A stretch of 32,000 bases of DNA, from NCBI RefSeq assembly GCF_001552715.1, contig NZ_BCRS01000002.1:67099-99098 (forward strand), in the 5' to 3' direction. How positions within the stretch are numbered: position 1 is the first letter of the stretch; each line of letters opens with the position of its first letter. The notes beneath the pieces were generated by a model that had not been told where the DNA came from, searched no databases, and was given only the letters and a program-made list of their open reading frames with translations. A program made the position numbers and the translations under genes. Positions 17,835-26,287 of the stretch are shown one piece after another. The stretch is from Mycolicibacterium vaccae NBRC 14118 = CIP 105934 (GTDB taxonomy: Bacteria; Actinomycetota; Actinomycetes; Mycobacteriales; Mycobacteriaceae).

Positions 17835-17967
17835 CCATCGCGTCGATCGTCAGCAGGGCGCCGTACAGCACGGCGTCGGCGATCGAGCGCTTGCTCACGT
17901 TATGTGCCAGCCTCATACGCCGCACCTGACGGGAACCGCGCACGACACGTGGGCATCTCGTCAACGA

Positions 17968-18004
17968 TTATGCAGCAATCGAATATGCAGGGTTACCCGT
18001 AAAG
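17968..18004 (+). repeat. Island repeat copy A (leader plus 23-nt core; the 22-nt spacer seen in copies B-D is missing)
   Basis: The sequence is ttatgcagcaatc-GAATATGCAGGGTTACCCGTAAA. The core matches the C/D core at 21 of 23 positions and keeps TTAC-NN-GTAA. It is followed after 5 nt by CCATGGT (cf. CCAATGGT in C and D). Confidence 0.7.
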
Positions 18005-18436
18005 CATGCCATGGTCACCTGATGAATCAGGGACGCCTCAAGTGACCGCCACCCGCCGCGTGTTTCGTCCACTTCCTGTCTGTTCGATCTCAATAGATCT
18101 GGCGGCTTTCGCATCGAACCTGGGGATCGTGGCGCTCGCCCCAACCTCCATCGAAGTTCGAGAACTCGAGCGCCTGCTGCTGCGGTGCATAGCGTTCGAG
18201 TACGAGCAACTGGAGCTGCAGAAATCGATTCACGTACGTATTCTCCGGGTACTGGCCGCGCTTCCCGAGACCGCGGACTATCGGTAGCCGTACAGCCCGT
18301 CGACTCGGCCGTGGCGCGTATTTGTGGTCCGACAACGATGTGGGTCTAGTGAGCGCTTCGAACTCGGGTTACCGACGCGCCCTCGGTCTTGGCCCAGCCG
18401 CCGAGGCGTGGCGCGGGTAATAGCGCCGCCACAGGA

Positions 18437-20017
18437 TCAGCGCTTCACGCCCTGGACGCCGAACCGGCGCCCACCCCAGTTGAAGGGTCCGCCGCCCCAC
18501 CGTGTAACACCGGAGAACCGGCCGAGCTCCCACGTGTGGGCCAACAGGGTGAATGGCTGGATGCCGTCGGGAAACATGATCATCAGGCGCAGTTCGTGCG
18601 GGGAGACCAGGCTGCCCACCACGTCGAGCGACTCCCCGGCGTCCGGTGTGTACCGGACGCGAAGCGGCGCGACCGACGAGATCTCCAAGCGTCCCCCCCA
18701 CCCGTCGTGGTTCATGTCCCAGGTGCCGATCCACTGACTGGCATCGAATCCCCGGTTTCCTAGCGTGTGAATAGGGTCCCGACTCATGGTTACCCCGAAC
18801 GGGATTCCCGACCACCATGTCTGGCCGGCAGCGTTGTCTGGATCCCAGGAGAACACATACGCGCGGAACTCTTGACCGGTCAGTTTGCCCGCGGGCACCC
18901 GCTTGGTCGAGTCGGCAACCCAGAAGTGCAACTGCTGGCCGTCATCCTCGACGTATCCGTTGACGGCGTATCCCTTGCCGTCGCGGAAATAGGTCCCCAG
19001 TTTGGTCGGCTTGCCCTCTGCCTGGCGGTAATCGGTCGTCCGGCGGATCACCAGGTGGCCCGTCCAGCCGTCGTGGTCGACGTTCCAGCGGCCGATCCAC
19101 CAGGCATCCTTCTGCACTGAGCTCTCGGGCGGGCACACCGCGGTGATGTAGTGCGCCCCCAGGATCGCCGGAGCACCGAAGGGCACTCGAATGAAGGTGT
19201 TCTGACCCCTCGAATCCTTCACGAGCCATTCGCGACTGCCCCGGTCATAACCGACGATGAGATAGCAGTGCCCTGGAATATCGGCGATCACCTCGTGGCC
19301 CTGCGACAGCACGGCCTGGATCAGGATGTCCGAGGGGTCGTCGCCCAGCGACCGGAAGCCGGTCACGCGGTACCGGGCCCGATATCGCGATGCCAGCGGG
19401 ATGTGCCCCTGCGTGTATTCGAAGGCATCGATTTGGCTTTGCGGCGTGGACTCTTCGGAGATCAGTGCGCCCGCACCGGGCGTGTTGAGGCGCAGCGTGT
19501 TCATGTCGCTGTGTGACAGATACCGCGCGTGGCGTTCCAACGGGATGGCGCTGCGGGCGAGTTTGGTGACGATGTCCGAGGAGCCCTGGAAGCCCCAGAA
19601 CGAACTGTTGTTCTCATGCAGCAGTTTCGGGCTGCTGTGGAACCCTGGGATCAGTTCGCCCGCCTTGTTGATGTGGAATGCGAACTGCTCGGACAAGTCG
19701 AGGGTGACGTGATGCTGGCGTCGGTAAGCGGCCTCCATGCCCGCGCACGTGGCGAATGCGTAACAGGTGCCCCGGTCCAGCTGATCCTTGAACGGCGTCT
19801 GCCAATGAGCCAGCGAGACCACTTCCGGCAGGAAATCGAACAGGCCGGTGAGCGTCTTTGGCGCGGGGAACCGTCGATAGGAGAGTGCATTGAGGCGGCG
19901 AACCTCCCCGATGTGCTGTGCCACGAACGCCGGATCGTCATCGATCACCGCCGCCGATAGCACACGCGTCGGCCAGGTGGTGGAGAACACCTCCGAGGGT
20001 GCGGATGTTGTCGTCAT
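18437..20017 (-). CDS. Papain-like (C1-type) cysteine peptidase fused to two tandem C-terminal repeat domains; no signal peptide
   Basis: 526 aa. The catalytic signature is collinear with papain: Q79-x5-C85 in KDQLDRGTCYAFA (papain QGSCGSCWAFS), H250 in IPGHCYLIVGYD (papain DHAVAAVGYG) and D268 in EWLVKDSRG (papain IKNSWG). Residues ~306-412 and ~428-526 form an internal repeat. Repeat 1 reads WWIGRWNVDHDGWTGHLVI...GTYF...YAVNGY...LHFWV...FRAYVFSWD...GQTWWSGIPFG. Repeat 2 reads QWIGTWDMNHDGWGGRLEI...VRYT...VVGSL...LRLMIMF...FTLLAHTWE...GVTRWGGGPFNWG. The N-terminus MTTTSAPSEVFSTTWPTRVLSAAVIDDD has no hydrophobic signal core. Confidence 0.8.
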   Translation of the reverse strand: MTTTSAPSEVFSTTWPTRVLSAAVIDDDPAFVAQHIGEVRRLNALSYRRFPAPKTLTGLFDFLPEVVSLAHWQTPFKDQLDRGTCYAFATCAGMEAAYRRQHHVTLDLSEQFAFHINKAGELIPGFHSSPKLLHENNSSFWGFQGSSDIVTKLARSAIPLERHARYLSHSDMNTLRLNTPGAGALISEESTPQSQIDAFEYTQGHIPLASRYRARYRVTGFRSLGDDPSDILIQAVLSQGHEVIADIPGHCYLIVGYDRGSREWLVKDSRGQNTFIRVPFGAPAILGAHYITAVCPPESSVQKDAWWIGRWNVDHDGWTGHLVIRRTTDYRQAEGKPTKLGTYFRDGKGYAVNGYVEDDGQQLHFWVADSTKRVPAGKLTGQEFRAYVFSWDPDNAAGQTWWSGIPFGVTMSRDPIHTLGNRGFDASQWIGTWDMNHDGWGGRLEISSVAPLRVRYTPDAGESLDVVGSLVSPHELRLMIMFPDGIQPFTLLAHTWELGRFSGVTRWGGGPFNWGGRRFGVQGVKR

Positions 20018-20334
20018 GACTGAATCCTTGGACGGCGGGAGTGCCGACGCACGAGTAGTCGGATACCTGCATCGGCCCGGGGCATTACTGGGCCGATGAG
20101 CTGCGCGACGACCGCGCGGCGTTCAATCGCAAGTGGTTTCAGCCAGCGATACAGGGCGCGTTCTTGGTGATCAACGATGCGATAGAACTCCACCACCGGC
20201 GAACCACCATCCAGTCCCCACCGGACTAGAGCAATAGCAAAGTGTGGAGCTTCACTGAGCGCATGGCGGCTAGGCGTAGCGGTCGGGCCTTCTCCCCGTG
20301 AGTCGCTGGGGCGGCATCTTCTTAGCCGGTGCAC
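20014..20334 (-). CDS. Possible small protein translationally coupled to the peptidase gene (true start probably internal)
   Basis: The ORF stop overlaps the peptidase ATG (ATGA at 20014..20017). The C-terminal part VVEFYRIVDHQERALYRWLKPLAIERRAVVAQLIGP... looks protein-like. The 5' third contains rare CTA/AGA codons, so GTG 20334 is doubtful. No recognisable family. Confidence 0.3.
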   Translation of the reverse strand: MHRLRRCRPSDSRGEGPTATPSRHALSEAPHFAIALVRWGLDGGSPVVEFYRIVDHQERALYRWLKPLAIERRAVVAQLIGPVMPRADAGIRLLVRRHSRRPRIQS

Positions 20335-21546
20335 TTGTGCGGCAGGAACTTCCTGACGACGCGAATCGCTGGCCAGTCGAGCGCGGAGGTGGTTGTGGCG
20401 CGGCGGTGGTGGTTGCCGGTCGATAACCGCAGTGTGAAGGAAAAAAGGGCATCTTTCAGTTGTTAGCGATAGGCCTAGGGGTCGTCGGTGCGGCGCTACT
20501 AATCTCAGGCTTCTTCATCCCAGCATCTTCGAAACCGATTGGAGCACAGGGTTACACGCGGTCGCAAGGTTCCTCTTGAAAAGTTGATGGGCGTTGGGGT
20601 AGCCGTAGTCGCACTCACGATGCTGACGCCGGCACACTTGCCGACGCAGACCCACGATTTTTCAGCCCAAATGAAGAGAGGTGGCTCAACCACTTTCGGA
20701 AAAATCTGGGCGTGAATATCGTTGACCCCATCGCGGCGGAAGAGACGGGCTATCAGCGATGTACTGCTGCGATGTATTCGCCCGATGTCGATACGGCCCG
20801 GACGCGCATGGATGCCATTCTCGCCGACTCCGTCTAGCCTCTCACCAATATTCAGAGACTCGCCATCCAAGGGTCCGCTCTAAATCTGCTCTGCCCTGGC
20901 AGCTAGACAATTGGACCGCTAGTCGCGTGTAGCGGGTGCTTCCTGAAATGGCGTCTCACCGAGCAGCACGTTCGTGAAGGACTGCCGATGAACGAAGCTG
21001 AAATACCGGCCCCAGCCTACCGCGCGCTTGGCCGGCCACGATGGCGGCGTTTGCCAACTGCCTTCCGCAATAATATTGCGGCACAACGATTTGCGAATCC
21101 AGAATGCATCCGACTAGCGCACCGCCGCAGCCATCGCCGCGCCGATGGCAACGAGCATATCGTTGTTGGCCTGGTTCGGACTGGGGACTGGGACTCCCCC
21201 AGCCCGCACTACACACTCATCTGCAGGAGGATCCGACGAGGCTGGTGCAGTCCTGCTGATCTGGCCGCGCTTAACTCCTCAGCAGTGCGTGGCCCGCGCC
21301 CTGCGGGCCTGACGGCGTAGAAATATCGGGCGTCCTGAACAAACTCCGCAGACACGTCGACCAATAGATGCCCGAGCCCGACCACAAATCCTCCGATTCG
21401 ATCAACCGGTACTTCCCGAGAAAATCAGCGAACTGCGGACTACGCCCCTCGCTACGCCGCGGACACCCTACTGAGGTTGATCGCGACAAGCATCCGGGCT
21501 CTCCCCGGCTCGACCGACCACATGTACCCCACGCGCGTGGGTCCGG

Positions 21547-21612
21547 GAATGCGGCGGAATCGAATATGGCGGGTTACCAGTAAGTGACTGTGTACTGCGC
21601 TGCCGCCCAATG
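21547..21612 (+). repeat. Island repeat copy B
   Basis: The sequence is gaatgcggcggaatc-GAATATGGCGGGTTACCAGTAAG. The core matches at 19 of 23 positions and TTAC-CA-GTAA is intact. CCAATG follows exactly 22 nt after the core, as in C and D. Confidence 0.65.
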
Positions 21613-21640
21613 CGCCCAACGACAGATGACCTGCGACGTA

Positions 21641-22090
21641 ATGGCTCGACTCGCCGACGAATGCCACACTCGTACGGTGGATACCCGTGAGGTCGTCGCC
21701 GAACTGCTTCGCCGCATCGCCGCCGGCGACCCGGCAAGGATAGCCGAGCTATATGCCGAGTCGATCTCGTGGAAGCTGAACTGGCCGGCCGGAGACTACG
21801 CCGCTGTCGTCCCGTGGATCCAGCAGCGATCCGACCGTGCCGGTGTCAACGAGCACTTCAAGCTCATCATCGAGCATCACATCACGAATCAGAGTTCTGC
21901 GGAGGTGTTTTCTGTGCTGGTCGACGGCGCAGACGCAATCGTGCTCGGCGAGCTCCACAACACCGCCAAACCGACTGGGCGAAGCTACGACGCCGCTTTC
22001 GCATTGCACCTCACTGTGGAGCACGGGCTGATCACCCGCCACCACATCTACGAGGACAGCCTTTCGGTGTTACAAGCTTTCGTGGTGTGA
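21641..22090 (+). CDS. NTF2-like / SnoaL-like (ketosteroid-isomerase fold) small protein
   Basis: About 149 aa from ATG 21641 (alternative ATG 21626; the track GTG 21584 lies inside repeat B). The pattern VVAELLRRIAAGDPARIAELYAESISWKL...FSVLVDGADAIVLGEL...FALHLTVEHGLITRHHIYEDS is typical of NTF2-like domains. Confidence 0.6.
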   Translation: MARLADECHTRTVDTREVVAELLRRIAAGDPARIAELYAESISWKLNWPAGDYAAVVPWIQQRSDRAGVNEHFKLIIEHHITNQSSAEVFSVLVDGADAIVLGELHNTAKPTGRSYDAAFALHLTVEHGLITRHHIYEDSLSVLQAFVV

Positions 22091-22127
22091 GAGCCTCGCT
22101 GAATTTGTGGATGCCACAAGCGGCTGA

Positions 22128-22380
22128 CCAGCCCCACTGGTTTCCGGCACTGTTGGGACTGCCGCGCCGCTCCCCGGCTGGCTGCTGCTGCGGCAGGCTC
22201 AGGTAGCCAATGACGCTCTGTTGCACGTGCTTTCGGATCAGGACCAGCAGTTCTACGAGGGCAAGATAACCGCAGCGCGGTTCTTCGCTCGCACGGCATT
22301 GCCTCAGATAGCGGCGGCTCGCGTGACTGTTGCGGGTGCCGACTTCGGGGTGATGGATCTGCCCGAAGACGCGTTCTGAG
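22128..22380 (+). pseudogene. 3'-terminal remnant of a FadE5-type acyl-CoA dehydrogenase (about 83 codons, no N-terminal part)
   Basis: The frame opens after a TGA at 22125..22127 and reads ...PGWLLLRQAQVANDALLHVLSDQDQQFYEGKITAARFFARTALPQIAAARVTVAGADFGVMDLPEDAF*. This resembles, from memory, the C-terminal tail of long mycobacterial acyl-CoA dehydrogenases (FYxGKxxxAxFFxxxxLP...LxExAF). There is no start codon or upstream catalytic domain. Confidence 0.55.
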
Positions 22381-22480
22381 CGATCAGCGGATCGAAAACG
22401 CCGTCGGAGACGCCCGCCACCCGCGACAAGATCGCATACCTACGGAAGTGTTGCGCGACCTCTGCAGGCACTCGCCGGAA

Positions 22481-22551
22481 GATGTGCAGGAATCGAATAT
22501 GCAGCGTTACCAGTAAATCACTGCATATTACGTTGCCGACCAATGGTTTTG
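22481..22551 (+). repeat. Island repeat copy C (full architecture)
   Basis: The sequence is gatgtgcaggaatc-GAATATGCAGCGTTACCAGTAAA-(22 nt)-CCAATGGTTTTG. The 23-nt core and the 12-nt distal box are identical to copy D with identical spacing. Only this copy has a perfect 9-bp hairpin, AATATGCAG (22496..22504) pairing with CTGCATATT (22521..22529). It lies 14 nt beyond the vapC stop. Confidence 0.8.
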
Positions 22552-22564
22552 ATACGTCGCACCG

Positions 22565-22987
22565 TTAGATGGTCCCCCGTTCCAGAACCCATTGATGCCG
22601 GAATGGTAGTACCTCTGCGGCAATCTCAAAGTCGGCGTCATAGTGAATCAGCGTCACATCATGGGCCCCTGCGATGGTGGCGATCAGGAGGTCGGCCATG
22701 CCGACGGCGCGGTGGCGACCAGTGCTGGCGAGCTGCCGTTGCGCGCCGAGTGCCATCTGCCAGTGCTCGTCATCGGTTGGCAGGTACTCATAGGCCAGAC
22801 GGCGGTCTGACCGGAGTTGTTCATAGTCTTTAGGGCTGCGGGCGCTGTAGAGCGCCTCGGCGTCGAGCTGAGCGGTGGTTGCGACCAATCCGGCCTCAAT
22901 GAGCGGGGCCAGCCTGGAGGCAACCTCGGGGTGCTTCATCCGTGCTGCCGCGCTGGTATCGACGAGGTGCCGAGCGATCAGCGCCAC
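22565..22987 (-). CDS. vapC: PIN-domain ribonuclease toxin VapC
   Basis: 140 aa. The sequence HLVDTSAA...D.LIATIAGAHDVTLIHYDADFEIAA carries the acidic PIN residue pattern. The GTG start overlaps the vapB 3' end by 10 nt. Confidence 0.9.
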   Translation of the reverse strand: MALIARHLVDTSAAARMKHPEVASRLAPLIEAGLVATTAQLDAEALYSARSPKDYEQLRSDRRLAYEYLPTDDEHWQMALGAQRQLASTGRHRAVGMADLLIATIAGAHDVTLIHYDADFEIAAEVLPFRHQWVLERGTI

Positions 22988-23184
22988 ACGTCACCACGTT
23001 GATCGGGGTCCGCCATCTCCCCTAGGCCGCCGGCTTGCAGCCAAGCGATCTGGCGTGCACGAGCAGACGAGGCTGCTGCCTGCTGCAATGCGATGCGCAC
23101 GGTGTCCGATACGCCGGACGTTTTGAGCTCCTTCTGCGCGGCGGCCAGCAGGTCATCGTCGAGATCGATCAGTCGCTTTGTCAT
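22978..23184 (-). CDS. vapB: VapB-type antitoxin (ribbon-helix-helix/DUF2191-like)
   Basis: 68 aa. MTKRLIDLDDDLLAAAQKELKTSGVSDTVRIALQQAA is the typical N-terminus of this VapB family. It lies immediately upstream of vapC and overlaps it. Confidence 0.85.
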   Translation of the reverse strand: MTKRLIDLDDDLLAAAQKELKTSGVSDTVRIALQQAAASSARARQIAWLQAGGLGEMADPDQRGDVWR

Positions 23185-23201
23185 CCGACAAGCCTCCCAG
23201 T

Positions 23202-23231
23202 GTATATACCAAGTTGAGGATCAGTATATAC
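23202..23231. promoter_or_regulatory. Two copies of the self-complementary octamer GTATATAC upstream of vapB (candidate VapBC operator/promoter)
   Basis: GTATATAC occurs at 23202..23209 and 23224..23231, 22 bp centre to centre (about two helical turns). The sites start 18 nt upstream of the vapB ATG, and GGGAGG is the RBS. Confidence 0.5.
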
Positions 23232-23270
23232 AAAGTTCGGGGTCGCGCCAGCGCTCGTAGACCTAGATCG

Positions 23271-23341
23271 GATATGCAGTAAATGAATATGCAGCGTTAC
23301 CAGTAAAGTACGTCCTATTGCCCTGCACACCAATGGTTTTG
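23271..23341 (+). repeat. Island repeat copy D (full architecture)
   Basis: The sequence is gatatgcagtaaat-GAATATGCAGCGTTACCAGTAAA-(22 nt)-CCAATGGTTTTG. It lies between the vapB promoter and the Nudix gene stop, and sits 790 bp from copy C in the same orientation. Confidence 0.8.
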
Positions 23342-23392
23342 TTCTGCGCTGTCCCGGCGACATTGAGACTGGACTCAGATGCTGGCCCTAGT

Positions 23393-23815
23393 TCAATTCA
23401 ACAACGTGCGACGCCGAAGAGCCGATGCGGCCTGCCGCGTCGCCTCGGTCAGCGGCTCGGGCAGATTATCGAGATCGAACCACCGCATCGCCGACAACGC
23501 CTGCGGTTCGAGAACGGAGGGTGTGCCGTCATAGCGTTCGATGAGATAGACCGGAGCCACCCAGTGTTGGCCGGCCTGACGATCGATCTGGTCGACGACA
23601 CATAGGAGCAGGCTCGGTTCGATGGAGATGCCGAGTTCTTCGCGGATCTCGCGCGTCACCGCGGCCGCCACGGGCTCAAACGGGTCGACCTTGCCTCCCG
23701 GGAGGCCCCAGCAACCCGCCTCCGGATTGCGCCTGCGGCGGACAAGCAGCAGGTTACCGTCCTGGACGATCGCTGCACCACATCCGACGCGTGGGCCAGA
23801 GCCATCAGCGTTCAT
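23393..23815 (-). CDS. Nudix hydrolase
   Basis: The Nudix box is perfect: GGKVDPFEPVAAAVTREIREELGI (Gx5Ex7REUxEExGU). ATG 23815 (MNADGSGPRVGCGAAIVQDG...) is preferred to the track start 23866. It overlaps the 3' end of the LOG gene by 11 nt. Confidence 0.85.
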   Translation of the reverse strand: MNADGSGPRVGCGAAIVQDGNLLLVRRRRNPEAGCWGLPGGKVDPFEPVAAAVTREIREELGISIEPSLLLCVVDQIDRQAGQHWVAPVYLIERYDGTPSVLEPQALSAMRWFDLDNLPEPLTEATRQAASALRRRTLLN

Positions 23816-24386
23816 CGCGCCTGATCCACTTCGTCTCCGTTGAGAGTTGATAGGTGAGTAGTCCATTCAGCAAGTCAGTGGGTGAATCCGAAGAGAGAAG
23901 CATCTGTCGATGGACGGGCTTCAAGAAACTCTCGTCGACAACATGGTCGAGGAAGGCCAGCAATCCGTCGTAGAAGTTGAGGGTGTTGAGCAACCCGCAC
24001 GGTTTTGCATGGGCGCCAAGCTGAGTCCACGTCCACACTTCGAAAATCTCTTCGAGAGTGCCGATTCCTCCAGGCAGGGCAATGAAGGCATCGGACAGCT
24101 CAGCCATCAACGCCTTGCGCTCATGCATGGAATCGACGATCCGCAAATCCTGCAGGCCGGTATGCGCGACTTCGTGTTCAACAAGGGCCCGCGGGATCAC
24201 CCCGATAACCTCGCCGCCAGCGGCCAAAGCCGAATCTGCAACTGCTCCCATGAGTCCGACGGCGGCTCCCCCGTAAACCAGACCGATCTGGCGCTCAGCC
24301 AGTAGTGCGCCCAGTTCCATTGCCGATGTGCGATATTGGTCATGGCGACCCAAATTCGAGCCGGAGAAAACGCAGATCCGATTCAT
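23805..24386 (-). CDS. LOG-family protein (TIGR00730-type; cytokinin riboside 5'-monophosphate phosphoribohydrolase-like)
   Basis: 193 aa. Motifs are ICVFSGS, GLVYGGAAVGLMGAVA, RK and the hallmark ALPGGIGTLEEIFE (PGGxGTxxE). AAGGA lies 8 nt upstream of the ATG. Confidence 0.9.
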   Translation of the reverse strand: MNRICVFSGSNLGRHDQYRTSAMELGALLAERQIGLVYGGAAVGLMGAVADSALAAGGEVIGVIPRALVEHEVAHTGLQDLRIVDSMHERKALMAELSDAFIALPGGIGTLEEIFEVWTWTQLGAHAKPCGLLNTLNFYDGLLAFLDHVVDESFLKPVHRQMLLSSDSPTDLLNGLLTYQLSTETKWIRRDER

Positions 24387-24690
24387 CCATCAATCCTTAC
24401 ATGAGCTTCTCGGCCAAAGTTTCTTGGGGATGCTGAGCGGGACCTGACCGCCTCCGATTTCGCGGCGTTGCCGGCGCAATATCGGCTCACCTACGCCTTG
24501 GCCATGGCCCACCCACGCTCTGCCGGAAGCCCATCTCGACAACGCCGCGCCGAGGCTGCAGACACTGACCACCCAAGCGTGCCTGGCAGCCCAACGCTGA
24601 CGGCCGCGTTGGAACGCGGTTAATCTCCGGCCGCGCAGATGGTGTGAGATACATAGGTTCGAGTGAGCCTGTCGCAGAAGCATTCTGCCT

Positions 24691-24982: not shown

Positions 24983-25534
24983 GTGGCCCTTTCTGCAACA
25001 GTGTTCAAATTCGAACTTGGCGTCTCCGATGTCGATCACGGTTACTACGCCGATCACGCGCTGACCGTGGCCCGTCATCCCAGTGAGACCGATGAGCGGA
25101 TGGTGGTGCGCTTGTTGGCGTTTGGATTGCGCGCACACCGGCTCAGCGAAGTCGACGGTGAGTTGGCGTTCGGCGCGGGCCTGTCCACCCCTGGCGTGCC
25201 GGACTTGCGGCTCTCGGACTACACGGAGCGGACCCTGGAGTGGATTGTCGTCGGTCAGCCCGATGAACGGGTCTTGGGCAAGGCGGCCAGCAAGGCCGAC
25301 CAGGTGCTGCTGTTCCCATTCGCCGCCGGCGTGGCCACCTGGTGGCGCACCGTGGGACCCAAAGTGGCGGGTCTGCCGAATCTGTCCGTCGTGCAGATTC
25401 CGCACGCGCCGGTGCAACAACTGGCCCAGAGCGTCGATCGCCGGGTCTCGGCGCAGGTCATGGTGATGGAAGGTCAGGTAACGATGACCGTGGGCGGTAT
25501 CGACGCCACCTTTACGCCCGAGCCATTGAAGTAG
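24983..25534 (+). CDS. yaeQ: YaeQ-family protein (PD-(D/E)XK-like fold family)
   Basis: The track ORF 24737..25534 was trimmed to GTG 24983 (VALSATVFKFELGVSDVD...). It is collinear with my recollection of E. coli YaeQ (MALKATIYKATVNVADLDR...[21 protein letters not shown]...). Matching segments here are LTVARHPSETDERMVVRLLAF, LEWIVVGQPDER and NLSVVQI. At 183 aa it compares with about 181 aa in E. coli. Confidence 0.8.
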   Translation: MALSATVFKFELGVSDVDHGYYADHALTVARHPSETDERMVVRLLAFGLRAHRLSEVDGELAFGAGLSTPGVPDLRLSDYTERTLEWIVVGQPDERVLGKAASKADQVLLFPFAAGVATWWRTVGPKVAGLPNLSVVQIPHAPVQQLAQSVDRRVSAQVMVMEGQVTMTVGGIDATFTPEPLK

Positions 25535-25661: not shown

Positions 25662-25901
25662 GTGGACACGACGGTGACGAGTACGGAGGCCAAGAACCGG
25701 CTCAATGCCCTTCTTGCCGAAGTGGAACGCACGGGCAAGTCCGTGACGATCACGAATCACGGCCGCCCCGTCGCCAAATTGGTGCCCGTCGAACTGATGC
25801 CGCGAAAGTTCGGGCAGCTGCCAAACCTTCTGGTGCCCAAGGACTTCGACGAGCCCCTGCCAGATTCGGAACTGGCGCGCTGGGAAAGCGCCGAAACGTG
25901 A
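25662..25901 (+). CDS. Phd/YefM-family type II antitoxin
   Basis: 79 aa. The sequence VTSTEAKNRLNALLAEVERTGKSVTITNHGRPVAKLVPVE is a canonical Phd/YefM N-terminal domain. The stop overlaps the toxin GTG (GTGA). Confidence 0.85.
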   Translation: MDTTVTSTEAKNRLNALLAEVERTGKSVTITNHGRPVAKLVPVELMPRKFGQLPNLLVPKDFDEPLPDSELARWESAET

Positions 25902-26287
25902 ACGTGCTGCTGGACACGCACACACTTCTATGGCTGGCGAGTACGCCGTCGGAGCTGGACGCCTCCGCGCTGGCCATCATCGCCGATCCGAACACCAACG
26001 TGTGCGTGACCGCGGCCTCGGCCTGGGAAATCTCGATCAAGACTCGGTTGGGCCGCCTTGACGGTGAGGCACTCCTGTCGGCCTGGGCCGACATCATTGC
26101 TGATATGACCACAACCGAATTGCCCATCGAGTCTCCCGATGCGATCCTGGCCGGCCGACTCCCCTGGGAGCACAAGGATCCCTTCGATCGCGTGATCGTC
26201 GCCCAGGCTCTACGGCGAAATCTCACCATCGCGACCCGCGACGCGAGGATCCTCGATGCCGCCCTGGCCCCAACCTTGCGAACCTGA
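25898..26287 (+). CDS. PIN-domain toxin (VapC-like)
   Basis: The track ORF 25550..26287 was trimmed to GTG 25898. VNVLLDTHTLLWL...SAASAWEISIK...HKDPFDRVIVAQA...TRDARI is the LLDT/EI.IK/DPFDR pattern of this PIN subgroup. 129 aa. Confidence 0.85.
   Translation: MNVLLDTHTLLWLASTPSELDASALAIIADPNTNVCVTAASAWEISIKTRLGRLDGEALLSAWADIIADMTTTELPIESPDAILAGRLPWEHKDPFDRVIVAQALRRNLTIATRDARILDAALAPTLRT

Follow-up and report, generated by a model that had tools for sequence, protein, structure and literature searches.

A putative C1A-like cysteine peptidase with predicted twin avidin/calycin-like barrels in Mycolicibacterium vaccae

Introduction

The barrel of cathepsin C blocks part of the active-site cleft and sets specificity. 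This exclusion barrel has been counted among the cleft-occluding barrels (PMC7863939), and in the potempin/KLIKK and staphostatin/staphopain layouts a beta-barrel inhibitor is encoded by a small ORF that ends within, or directly against, the start of the peptidase gene (PMC9890683; PMC7863939). In prokaryotes, C1A peptidases have a spotty occurrence and are prone to horizontal transfer (PMC10380794), and their multi-domain representatives were set aside in the 2023 survey of the family (PMC10380794). These multi-domain enzymes are numerous and almost unstudied.

Here we analyze a gene of this kind from M. vaccae NBRC 14118 = CIP 105934, located in a window (the whole stretch of DNA analyzed) of 32,000 nucleotides, in whose positions all coordinates are given. 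A first-pass annotation, made from the sequence alone, had described an apparently cytoplasmic papain-like peptidase with two C-terminal repeats, coupled to a small upstream ORF. We conclude that the protein is an uncharacterized variant of a known enzyme family. Our preferred reading, which we judge fairly probable, is that of a monocistronic gene for an intact C1A-like cysteine peptidase, composed of an N-terminal extension, a catalytic domain and twin avidin/calycin-like barrels.

The gene and its catalytic domain

The protease gene lies at 18437-20017 on the minus strand (526 codons plus stop), would encode a multi-domain C1A-type cysteine peptidase, and is identical to MYVA_3198 of M. vaccae 95051. 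The 526-aa ORF starts with ATG and its reading frame is full length and intact. Its GC content is 0.639 overall, with 0.61 at first and 0.81 at third codon positions (GC1 and GC3), and both the overall and the GC3 values are those of the adjoining core genes. A Shine-Dalgarno-like AAGGA, read directly from the sequence at 20025-20029 on the same strand, stands 7 nt ahead of the ATG, and the gene has a ribosome-binding site of its own. The protein aligns end to end with homologs at 58-68% identity, and with the closest of them (P0002) from residue 1. Searches of NCBIfam returned no match for the protease or for the small upstream ORF. Many homologs carry the NCBI label "C1 family peptidase", and the family is already present in databases, so it is not unknown there. 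Literature searches found no characterized member of the family, in agreement with the first-pass annotation.

A papain-fold catalytic domain is assigned to residues 66-296 (19130-19822, minus strand) by Pfam, by sequence matches to cathepsins K/L and by Foldseek. The Peptidase_C1 profile (PF00112) gives 21.6 bits where the cut-off is 20.7, a marginal match that covers only residues 74-111 (38 residues). The same profile is found in the precomputed annotation of most homologs, and in one of these (P0096) the match spans profile positions 15-213 of 220. A PDB sequence search gave weak matches to cathepsins K/L near the catalytic Cys and His. When the AF2 model of the whole protease (pLDDT 94.5, pTM 0.93) was searched with Foldseek, cathepsins S/K/L, papain and xylellain were retrieved (E ~1e-6, probability 1.00, target TM 0.60-0.65), as was Cwp84; identity to solved C1A enzymes is about 15-19%. 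The profile score above cut-off, the cathepsin matches and the structural search together uphold the placement in the papain clan that had been proposed.

The active-site residues sit at the positions first given for them: Gln79 of the oxyanion hole (codon at 19781-19783, minus strand, as are the following), the nucleophile Cys85 (19763-19765), the catalytic base His250 (19268-19270), and Asp268 (19214-19216), which replaces the usual Asn. Among 78 homologs, Cys and His are invariant (78/78), Gln is present in 77, and position 268 is Asn in 74 and Asp in 4. The four Asp sequences come from at least three lineages. Because W270 is also lost in all four (it is Arg in the M. vaccae protease), the combination suggests a tolerated alternative triad. 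Both substitutions, N268D and W270R, lie beside the catalytic triad at positions kept in at least 90% of members, which makes a reduced or altered activity of the M. vaccae protease possible. Overall, the protein departs from seven columns conserved in at least 85% of homologs. No Cys in the 78-homolog alignment is conserved enough to suggest a disulfide.

A pair of barrels shared with other proteins

The C-terminal part consists of two units, barrel 1 (residues 303-416; 18770-19111, minus strand; motif WIGRWNVDHDGWTGHL) and barrel 2 (residues 424-526; 18440-18748, minus strand; motif WIGTWDMNHDGWGGRL), each modeled as a short helix plus eight strands. The two are related by BLASTP (E 8e-7, 27% identity), and both repeats align over their full length across 45 barrels, with G-x-W-x-M-x-H-D-G-W-x-G-x-L as hallmark, in line with the tandem modules recognized in the first-pass annotation. 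Modeled separately, the C-terminal part again gave two helix-plus-8-strand units (pLDDT 95.3), and these models point to homologous 8-stranded up-and-down barrels of the calycin/avidin type. The early impression of an avidin/calycin fold received support when the C-terminal model was searched with Foldseek: the best single-domain matches were a designed beta-barrel (6d0t), avidin (5hlm) and FABPs (TM 0.45-0.57), with the U-Omp19 inhibitor barrel also among them. The lowest E-values (2e-4) belonged to tandem-barrel OAA-type lectins, but at a TM of 0.2 and an rmsd of ~15 Å; judging from these models, the barrels might have a lectin-like role. Neither barrel, nor the 45 aligned barrels, matched any Pfam family at E<=1, be it Avidin (PF01382) or one of the known carbohydrate- or cell-wall-binding domains with which the repeats were to be compared. 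The 45-barrel profile gave only chance-level matches among PDB sequences, to a xylanase and a designed protein, and hhalign against streptavidin (an approximate query sequence) returned a probability of 0.5%.

Exhaustive phmmer searches of 1.84e9 representatives located barrels in 197 clusters, defined at 50% identity; a word-index profile search with the barrel alignment gave five proteins, an undercount with respect to phmmer. The twin barrel motif directly follows the catalytic domain in nine C25 (gingipain-type) peptidases, all with Sec signals, and their barrel pairs match by phmmer at E 1e-8 to 1e-20. Because the same pair follows C25 catalytic domains, we infer that cysteine peptidases use it as an accessory module; any function suggested for the barrels derives from domain co-occurrence alone. 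There are also secreted single-barrel proteins, for example in Thiothrix (P0257), and UniRef gives one such protein the name "Avidin family protein"; the stand-alone ones have no peptidase gene adjoining. In Streptomyces there are deletion derivatives that retain the barrels only.

Export signals and site of action

The N-terminal extension (residues 1-65; 19823-20017, minus strand) contains a confident helix at residues 29-49, according to AF2 secondary structure and pLDDT, and is possibly a short pro-segment. No I29-type propeptide was detected in the protease. Zymogen structures were among the top Foldseek matches and gave longer alignments, but at an rmsd of 11-14 Å.

The protease has no signal peptide at its annotated N-terminus, and none precedes it in frame: the stretch ahead of the ATG reaches back 37 codons to a stop and is not signal-like. 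A frameshifted signal peptide upstream was considered and rejected, since all three minus-strand frames ahead of the gene lack signal-like features. About 25 of 120 homologs (about one in five) have an N-terminus of Tat, Sec or lipobox type, as read by hand and heuristically, not with SignalP, and orthologs at 50-54% identity include Tat substrates or lipoproteins. One ortholog with a Tat signal is from Amycolatopsis (P0028). About three quarters of the homologs, the M. vaccae protease included, have no recognizable signal. Relatives are fused to SLH, Cu_amine_oxidN1, LGFP, PASTA, tachylectin and DUF346 modules, and those without a signal can still carry LGFP, PASTA or lectin modules. The normal site of action of LGFP, PASTA and lectin modules is outside the cell. 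Because relatives have Tat, Sec or lipoprotein signals and SLH, LGFP, PASTA or lectin modules, the family would often act outside the cell. This may not hold for the M. vaccae protease, because it belongs to the signal-less three quarters; together with its closest clade, it would be either cytoplasmic or exported by a route invisible to these tools. Of the apparently cytoplasmic protein described in the first-pass annotation, the absence of a signal peptide stood, whereas the location itself is uncertain in view of the signals and the cell-surface or lectin modules of relatives.

Neighborhood of the gene

Protease loci, 75 in number, are scattered across many phyla, with none in other Mycobacteriaceae. 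This patchy spread, as seen in sequence databases, fits the pattern of prokaryotic C1A peptidases, and M. vaccae probably obtained the gene by horizontal transfer. Gene neighbors differ among the six neighborhoods compared, and among 81 protease loci each flanking ORF family recurs in 6 at most; the gene stands alone, without a conserved partner gene. It had been described as the largest cargo of a low-GC island. A dip in GC (0.59-0.62) is indeed real upstream, at ~20000-24500, over gene-poor DNA and toxin-antitoxin/LOG genes, but the GC of the protease gene itself equals that of its core neighbors. The gene-poor DNA upstream amounts to 1.6 kb, and a fragment of an acyl-CoA dehydrogenase gene lies nearby. 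The M. vaccae neighbors include two VapBC-type modules, and those of the Janibacter homolog include IS elements and TacA/HipA-like genes. Scans for promoters and terminators gave counts at or below chance. Within the window there is no tRNA and no Rfam family, and therefore no classical island boundary was found. Four intergenic repeats were noted as possible marks of cassette junctions. A phage or defense origin was considered and dropped: no PADLOC-DB model matched either the protease or the small ORF, nor any of three neighboring ORFs, at E<=0.1, and neither phage records nor BFVD viral structure models gave a meaningful match.

Upstream of the protease lies a 106-codon ORF with a GTG start (20014-20334, minus strand), whose stop overlaps the protease ATG (ATGA); the overlap is physically present, as had been reported. 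Its GC1/GC3 values are 0.74/0.57, compared with a GC3 of 0.70-0.86 in other annotator-called genes (0.65 in LOG). There are 81 ORFs of at least 40 aa within the surrounding 7 kb, and the presence of this one is no more than chance. It was called neither in CP011491.1 nor in a contig that a metagenome yielded for the same organism, has no homolog at E<=10 among 5.8e9 proteins, and gave no tblastn match in related loci. Beside the two closest protease homologs, its place is taken by a divergent gene ~210 nt upstream. Because its codon-position GC is wrong, it is never called, it has no homolog and it is absent beside relatives, we judge this ORF from its sequence to be spurious and not a gene.

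Discussion

The preferred reading starts with a helical extension of 65 residues, followed by the catalytic domain with Gln79/Cys85/His250/Asp268; the tandem barrels and the catalytic domain are predicted to form one rigid body. The protein would be an active thiol peptidase with a Cys-His-Asp triad, and the barrel pair would either control how the active-site cleft is reached, in the manner of the cathepsin C exclusion domain, or target the enzyme by binding a ligand or substrate. Substrates of the family would mostly be extracellular proteins.

The first-pass annotation had suggested a two-gene unit, in which translation of the small ORF is coupled to that of the protease and the ORF product serves as inhibitor, immunity protein or partner, comparable to the potempins of KLIKK peptidases or the staphostatins of staphopains. 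The stop/start overlap is real, and small beta-barrel inhibitor genes that overlap or abut a peptidase start are on record (PMC9890683, PMC7863939). Nonetheless, the ORF has non-coding codon statistics (its GC1 and GC3 are unlike those of called genes), is uncalled in two assemblies and lacks any homolog in the large protein search, while the protease has its own Shine-Dalgarno site. The check on co-occurrence went against the pairing as well, with a divergent gene instead of the ORF beside both closest homologs and no conserved flanking family across the 81 loci. We therefore regard the two-gene reading as largely refuted and extremely improbable. We also think it quite unlikely that the signal-less copy is a cytoplasmic effector, that is, a regulated or toxic protease acting inside the cell, for example in stress or against phage, within a variable region rich in toxin-antitoxin genes. 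The signal-less state and intact catalytic residues are conserved throughout the closest clade, the lack of disulfide-grade Cys fits folding in a reducing cytoplasm, and VapBC-type modules (M. vaccae) or IS and TacA/HipA-like genes (Janibacter) are nearby. However, PADLOC models and phage records are without a match, no partner, sensor or antitoxin is conserved across the 81 loci, LGFP, PASTA or lectin modules occur in relatives that lack a signal, and the orthologs with 50-54% identity have Tat or lipoprotein signals.

Two further explanations concern activity. The barrels or the N-terminal extension could occlude the active site, the barrels resembling a fused staphostatin, potempin or Inh-type inhibitor, and keep the enzyme in zymogen form until it is processed. 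As modeled, the barrels belong to the same broad class of 8-stranded up-and-down barrels as PotB/PotE potempins, staphostatins and U-Omp19 (PMC9890683, PMC7863939), they directly follow the catalytic domain in two unrelated families of cysteine peptidases, the three-domain model is rigid by its pTM, and zymogens yield long alignments among the top matches. Such built-in latency is nevertheless quite improbable, given the large rmsd of those alignments, the absence of staphostatins and potempins from the best 50 Foldseek matches listed, and the secreted stand-alone barrels that have no peptidase gene beside them. Alternatively, the gene could be a decaying, inactive remnant of horizontal acquisition, degenerating amid pseudogene fragments after loss of its export signal. 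The seven departures from conserved columns, two of them beside the triad (N268D, W270R), the gene-poor DNA with the acyl-CoA dehydrogenase fragment, and the barrel-only derivatives of Streptomyces agree with decay; the full-length frame with host-like GC3, the end-to-end alignment with homologs, and the intact Cys, His and Gln argue against it, and the recurrence of Asp268 with W270 loss in other lineages looks like an alternative configuration. We find this decidedly improbable.

Beyond the preferred reading of an intact, monocistronic peptidase, a speculative and rather unlikely extension is that the twin "HDGW" barrels are an undescribed regulatory module shared by the unrelated C1 and C25 clans, a fused pair resembling an exclusion domain or an inhibitor, which gates the cleft or couples proteolysis to the binding of small ligands or glycans. 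The signal-less C1 majority, the M. vaccae protease included, would then be proteases kept in the cytoplasm, to be set free or activated only when lysis, predation or stress occurs.

The locus provides a clean, confidently modeled example of a subfamily that is small, with ~200 clusters at 50% identity. The barrel accessory module is without a Pfam entry and without a solved relative by sequence, and, being common to C1 and C25 enzymes, points to a general means by which cysteine peptidases are controlled or targeted. The mixture of Tat, Sec, lipoprotein and signal-less orthologs raises a testable question on the location of the enzyme. For annotation, a "hypothetical protein" becomes a C1-family peptidase and a false partner gene is removed.

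Compared with known systems, the protease shares with C1A peptidases such as xylellain (3ois) and Cwp84 (4d59) the fold and the order of Gln, Cys, His and a third polar residue, and differs in having Asp for Asn and no disulfide-grade Cys, detected I29-type propeptide or signal peptide. As in other prokaryotic C1A genes, its occurrence is spotty and its product multi-domain, as theirs often are (PMC10380794). Cwp84 of C. difficile is a bacterial C1A enzyme too, in which a beta-rich domain likewise follows the catalytic one, but where Cwp84 has a lectin-like sandwich and cell-wall-binding repeats, the M. vaccae protease has a twin avidin-like barrel. In cathepsin C, too, a papain-fold domain forms a permanent unit with an additional beta-barrel; its exclusion domain is N-terminal, single and eukaryotic, whereas the barrels here are C-terminal and duplicated, and no sequence match or listed structural match of the protease to cathepsin C was obtained. 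In contrast to potempin and staphostatin pairs, the small ORF here is a non-conserved non-gene, and the only barrels are those fused within the peptidase. The barrels are modeled with an 8-stranded up-and-down topology like that of avidin and the calycins, with which they also share a G-x-W in strand one (by Foldseek, TM is 0.56 for avidin 5hlm and 0.45 for FABPs), but have no match to Pfam Avidin or to PDB sequences. To our knowledge, the H-D-G-W hairpin is not an avidin feature. The C25 (gingipain-family) peptidases with the barrel pair belong to clan CD instead of CA and are large secreted proteins with Sec signals and many PKD, CARDB, FG-GAP or CBM96 modules; yet they carry homologous tandem barrels, with the motif G-x-W-x-M-x-H-D-G-W-x-G-x-L kept, at the same place, right after the catalytic domain.

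The protease gene and its catalytic domain

The window protein belongs to a subfamily of bacterial C1A peptidases that is uncharacterised and of sporadic occurrence, and that is set apart by an undescribed pair of predicted avidin-like barrels, also seen in C25 peptidases. It is encoded by an ATG-started ORF of 526 codons (18437-20017, minus strand). In Mycolicibacterium vaccae 95051 (chromosome CP011491.1), a protein with 100% identity to it is annotated as MYVA_3198, "hypothetical protein". GC content at codon positions 1/2/3 (0.61/0.49/0.81) matches that of the neighbouring genes, and the frame is thus clearly coding. The ATG is preceded, at a distance of 7 nt, by an AAGGA motif, and the alignment between the closest homologue, P0002, and the window protein starts at residue 1 (MTTTISDVLATTWP... 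versus MTTTSAPSEVFSTTWP...).

Several analyses agree on the papain-like placement put forward in the first-pass annotation and on the conservation of the catalytic Cys and His. Pfam Peptidase_C1 matches residues 74-111 with 21.6 bits (cut-off 20.7 bits), and cathepsins K and L from the PDB gave weak sequence matches around both catalytic motifs, that of the Cys (72-118) and that of the His (246-273). We found 139 homologues, many of them named "C1 family peptidase" by NCBI; in an alignment of 78 sequences, C85 and H250 are invariant and Q79 is present in 77. The AlphaFold2 model built from the alignment is very confident (pLDDT 94.5, pTM 0.93), and Foldseek relates it to cathepsins S, K and L, papain, xylellain and Cwp84 (E ~1e-6, probability 1.00, target TM 0.60-0.65). 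Beyond the nucleophile, no Cys in the alignment shows conservation indicative of a disulfide (C91, 36%; C251, 56%).

After the His, the consensus of the 78 sequences reads V-K-N-S-W-G-E, which is the Asn-Ser-Trp motif of papain. The window protein has V-K-D-S-R-G-Q at this place, i.e., N268D and W270R. Asp268 occurs in 4/78 sequences from at least three lineages; in the family alignment (A1), Trp270 is gone from all four (R, A, A, N) and is missing in only 3 of the 74 sequences with Asn268. Positions 268 and 270 change together across the family. We infer that Asp268 without Trp270 would be a tolerated alternative triad rather than a sign of decay. In the model, residues 1-65 are an ordered extension in which residues 29-49 make up a long helix. 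With zymogen structures the Foldseek alignments become longer, but at an rmsd of 11-14 Å, so that a pro-segment role for this extension is only a suggestion.

Sequence and fold of the barrel repeats

The protease and its twin barrels were both confirmed, well above chance. The two C-terminal repeats (residues 303-416 and 424-526) are mutually related (BLASTP E 8e-7), and the end-to-end alignment of 45 family barrels shows the conserved positions W-x-G-x-W-x(3)-H-D-G-W-x-G-x-L ... Y ... G ... Q-x-F ... G-x-T-x-W ... F-G. When residues 295-526 were modelled separately (pLDDT 95.3), two units resulted, each with a short helix followed by eight strands. Foldseek searches of the PDB returned only weak matches, and the single-domain ones are all small up-and-down barrels: the designed barrel 6d0t (TM 0.57), avidin 5hlm (TM 0.56), FABPs and UnaG (TM 0.41-0.48), a lipocalin and the U-Omp19 inhibitor barrel. 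Another match, at E 2e-4, is DUF3598 (2o62), a protein of two barrels; OAA-type tandem-barrel lectins had among the lowest E-values, but a TM of 0.2. No Pfam family matched the barrels, no solved structure among the PDB sequences is related to them by sequence, and profile comparison with streptavidin was negative. The avidin/calycin likeness initially proposed therefore holds at most for the predicted fold, and not for the sequence. Nor did the repeats match a known carbohydrate- or cell-wall-binding domain in these searches.

Genomic setting

On one side, the protease gene is flanked by an IclR-linked cluster of sulfotransferase, alkylsulfatase, SDR (short-chain dehydrogenase) and P450 genes, and on the other by a patchwork of SnoaL, an acyl-CoA dehydrogenase (ACAD) fragment, two VapBC-type modules, NUDIX-LOG and YaeQ. 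The gene had been described as cargo of a low-GC island; a GC dip (0.59-0.62) does exist nearby, at ~20000-24500, but lies outside the protease gene. In a pattern scan covering 185,579 species, each represented by one genome, 75 loci turned up across Actinomycetota, Pseudomonadota, Bacteroidota, Myxococcota, Bacillota, Thermotogae, Cyanobacteria and archaea, with no other member of the Mycobacteriaceae among them, and the closest relative (68% identity) is from a forest-soil metagenome. So patchy a distribution is consistent with acquisition by horizontal transfer, a pattern described across the prokaryotic C1A peptidases (PMC10380794). In contrast to this reading, the composition of the gene is host-like, and no boundary is indicated by an integrase, a tRNA or an Rfam element.

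Four copies of an intergenic repeat, all on the plus strand, occur at 17967-18037, 21548-21618, 22481-22551 and 23271-23341; with up to 3 mismatches allowed, chance alone would give none. The unit of 45-70 nt has the core GAATCGAATATGCAGSGTTACCAGTAAA, with a second copy of the octamer ATATGCAG before it; it has no Rfam match and no significant fold. The copies lie between gene blocks (the protease with 1.5 kb of gene-poor DNA; SnoaL with the ACAD fragment; VapBC; NUDIX-LOG). They may represent junctions of cassettes, operators or an element of the MITE kind. The ~1.6 kb upstream of the protease (20018-21676; GC 0.60) contain no convincing gene and no frame with sustained high GC3, the sole ORF called by the genome's annotators being of 41 aa (20712-20837, plus strand); this DNA may be decayed or foreign. 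Beside the SnoaL-like gene lies an 80-aa ORF (22137-22379, plus strand) whose sole match is to the acyl-CoA dehydrogenase C-terminal domain (Acyl-CoA_dh_C); it looks like a piece of a gene or what remains of a pseudogene. The NUDIX-LOG pair (23393-24386, minus strand), whose LOG gene has the lowest GC (0.57), and the YaeQ gene (24983-25534, plus strand) are enclosed by two toxin-antitoxin pairs: at 22565-23184 (minus strand) a PIN protein and a partner of 68 aa that overlaps it, and at 25662-26287 (plus strand) PhdYeFM with PIN.

A GTG reading frame (20014-20334, minus strand) had been proposed as a partner gene, and the overlap of its stop with the protease ATG (ATGA) is real. This frame has a GC1 of 0.74 and a GC3 of 0.57 with many A/T-ending codons, and has been called neither in the NCBI genome nor in a contig of this organism from a metagenome. 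A search of 5.8 billion proteins gave it no homologue at E<=10. It is absent beside the two closest protease homologues, which have a divergent gene ~210 nt upstream in its place. Together, these observations rule it out as a gene. Moreover, no gene is common to the six annotated protease neighbourhoods, and when all flanking ORFs of 50 aa or more from 81 loci were compared with one another, no family occurred in more than six loci and the window's flanking ORFs matched nothing at any other locus. We therefore reject a two-gene unit of protease and partner.

Export and location

As first noted, the window protein has no signal peptide or lipobox, and the in-frame stretch upstream of its ATG, closed by a stop 37 codons before, is not signal-like either. 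We read the N-termini of 120 homologues manually, guided by a simple heuristic based on hydrophobicity and RR: ~12 have Tat-type N-termini (e.g., P0010, P0014, P0019, P0028), ~13 have Sec or lipobox N-termini (e.g., the Archangium lipoproteins P0093 and P0101), and the rest showed no signal. Extending genomic ORFs to the longest possible start gained no signals in Kitasatospora, Streptomyces, Janibacter, Microbacterium and others. The mature part of Tat-bearing orthologues starts exactly where signal-less orthologues start (...A-P-R-F-E-D-V-V versus M-A-Q-A-V-R-F-E-D-V-V), and the family, with its mixed N-termini, therefore alternates between exported forms and forms that lack a signal. The latter keep all catalytic residues, some along with LGFP, PASTA or lectin modules. 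"Apparently cytoplasmic" is a fair description of the protein's sequence; the cytoplasm is a candidate site of action.

One Tat-signal homologue is encoded at locus L011, in a record titled Rhodococcus rhodnii NRRL B-16535 (JOAA01000024.1). The first 90 residues shown are identical to those of P0010, assigned by NCBI to Kibdelosporangium aridum, and the two records are nearly equal in length (151,383 versus 151,440 bp); L011 may come from a mislabelled strain or a duplicated record.

Distribution and possible role of the barrel pair

Among 1.84 billion cluster representatives, an exhaustive phmmer search yielded only 197 barrel-carrying proteins. The majority are C1 peptidases in which the pair comes immediately behind the catalytic domain. 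Further C1 members bear Cu_amine_oxidN1 or SLH domains at the N-terminus, or LGFP, PASTA, tachylectin, DUF346 or BTRD1 modules at the C-terminus. In nine of the 197, all large proteins with a Sec signal, the pair directly follows a Peptidase_C25 (gingipain-type) domain; they have the H-D-G-W motif twice, as in the C1 members, and additional PKD, CARDB, FG-GAP, Big or CBM96 modules.

Barrels also occur without a peptidase domain. Secreted single-barrel proteins of 130 aa exist, that of Thiothrix unzii being an "Avidin family protein" in UniRef. Its gene (locus L086, 5001-5393; CP072793.1) lies in a run of small unannotated genes, near those for a DM9-like protein and a TGase_elicitor-domain protein; none of the adjoining genes has a peptidase domain annotation, and most have no annotation at all. 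Streptomyces proteins of ~250-260 aa consist of the barrel pair only, e.g., WP_003959239.1 on Streptomyces clavuligerus plasmid pF1D10B (L085, 4878-5633). Such barrel-only derivatives keep the family's N-terminal residues and look like deletion products. Among them, P0126 keeps the first residues (MPRPLRFE...) and has no catalytic domain, and thus looks like an internal deletion derivative.

The fusion of the barrel pair right behind the catalytic domains of two unrelated cysteine-peptidase clans argues that it would serve proteolysis itself, via specificity, targeting or control. Parallels are found in the exclusion-domain barrel of cathepsin C and in staphostatin and potempin, barrel inhibitors of proteases (PMC7863939, PMC9890683).
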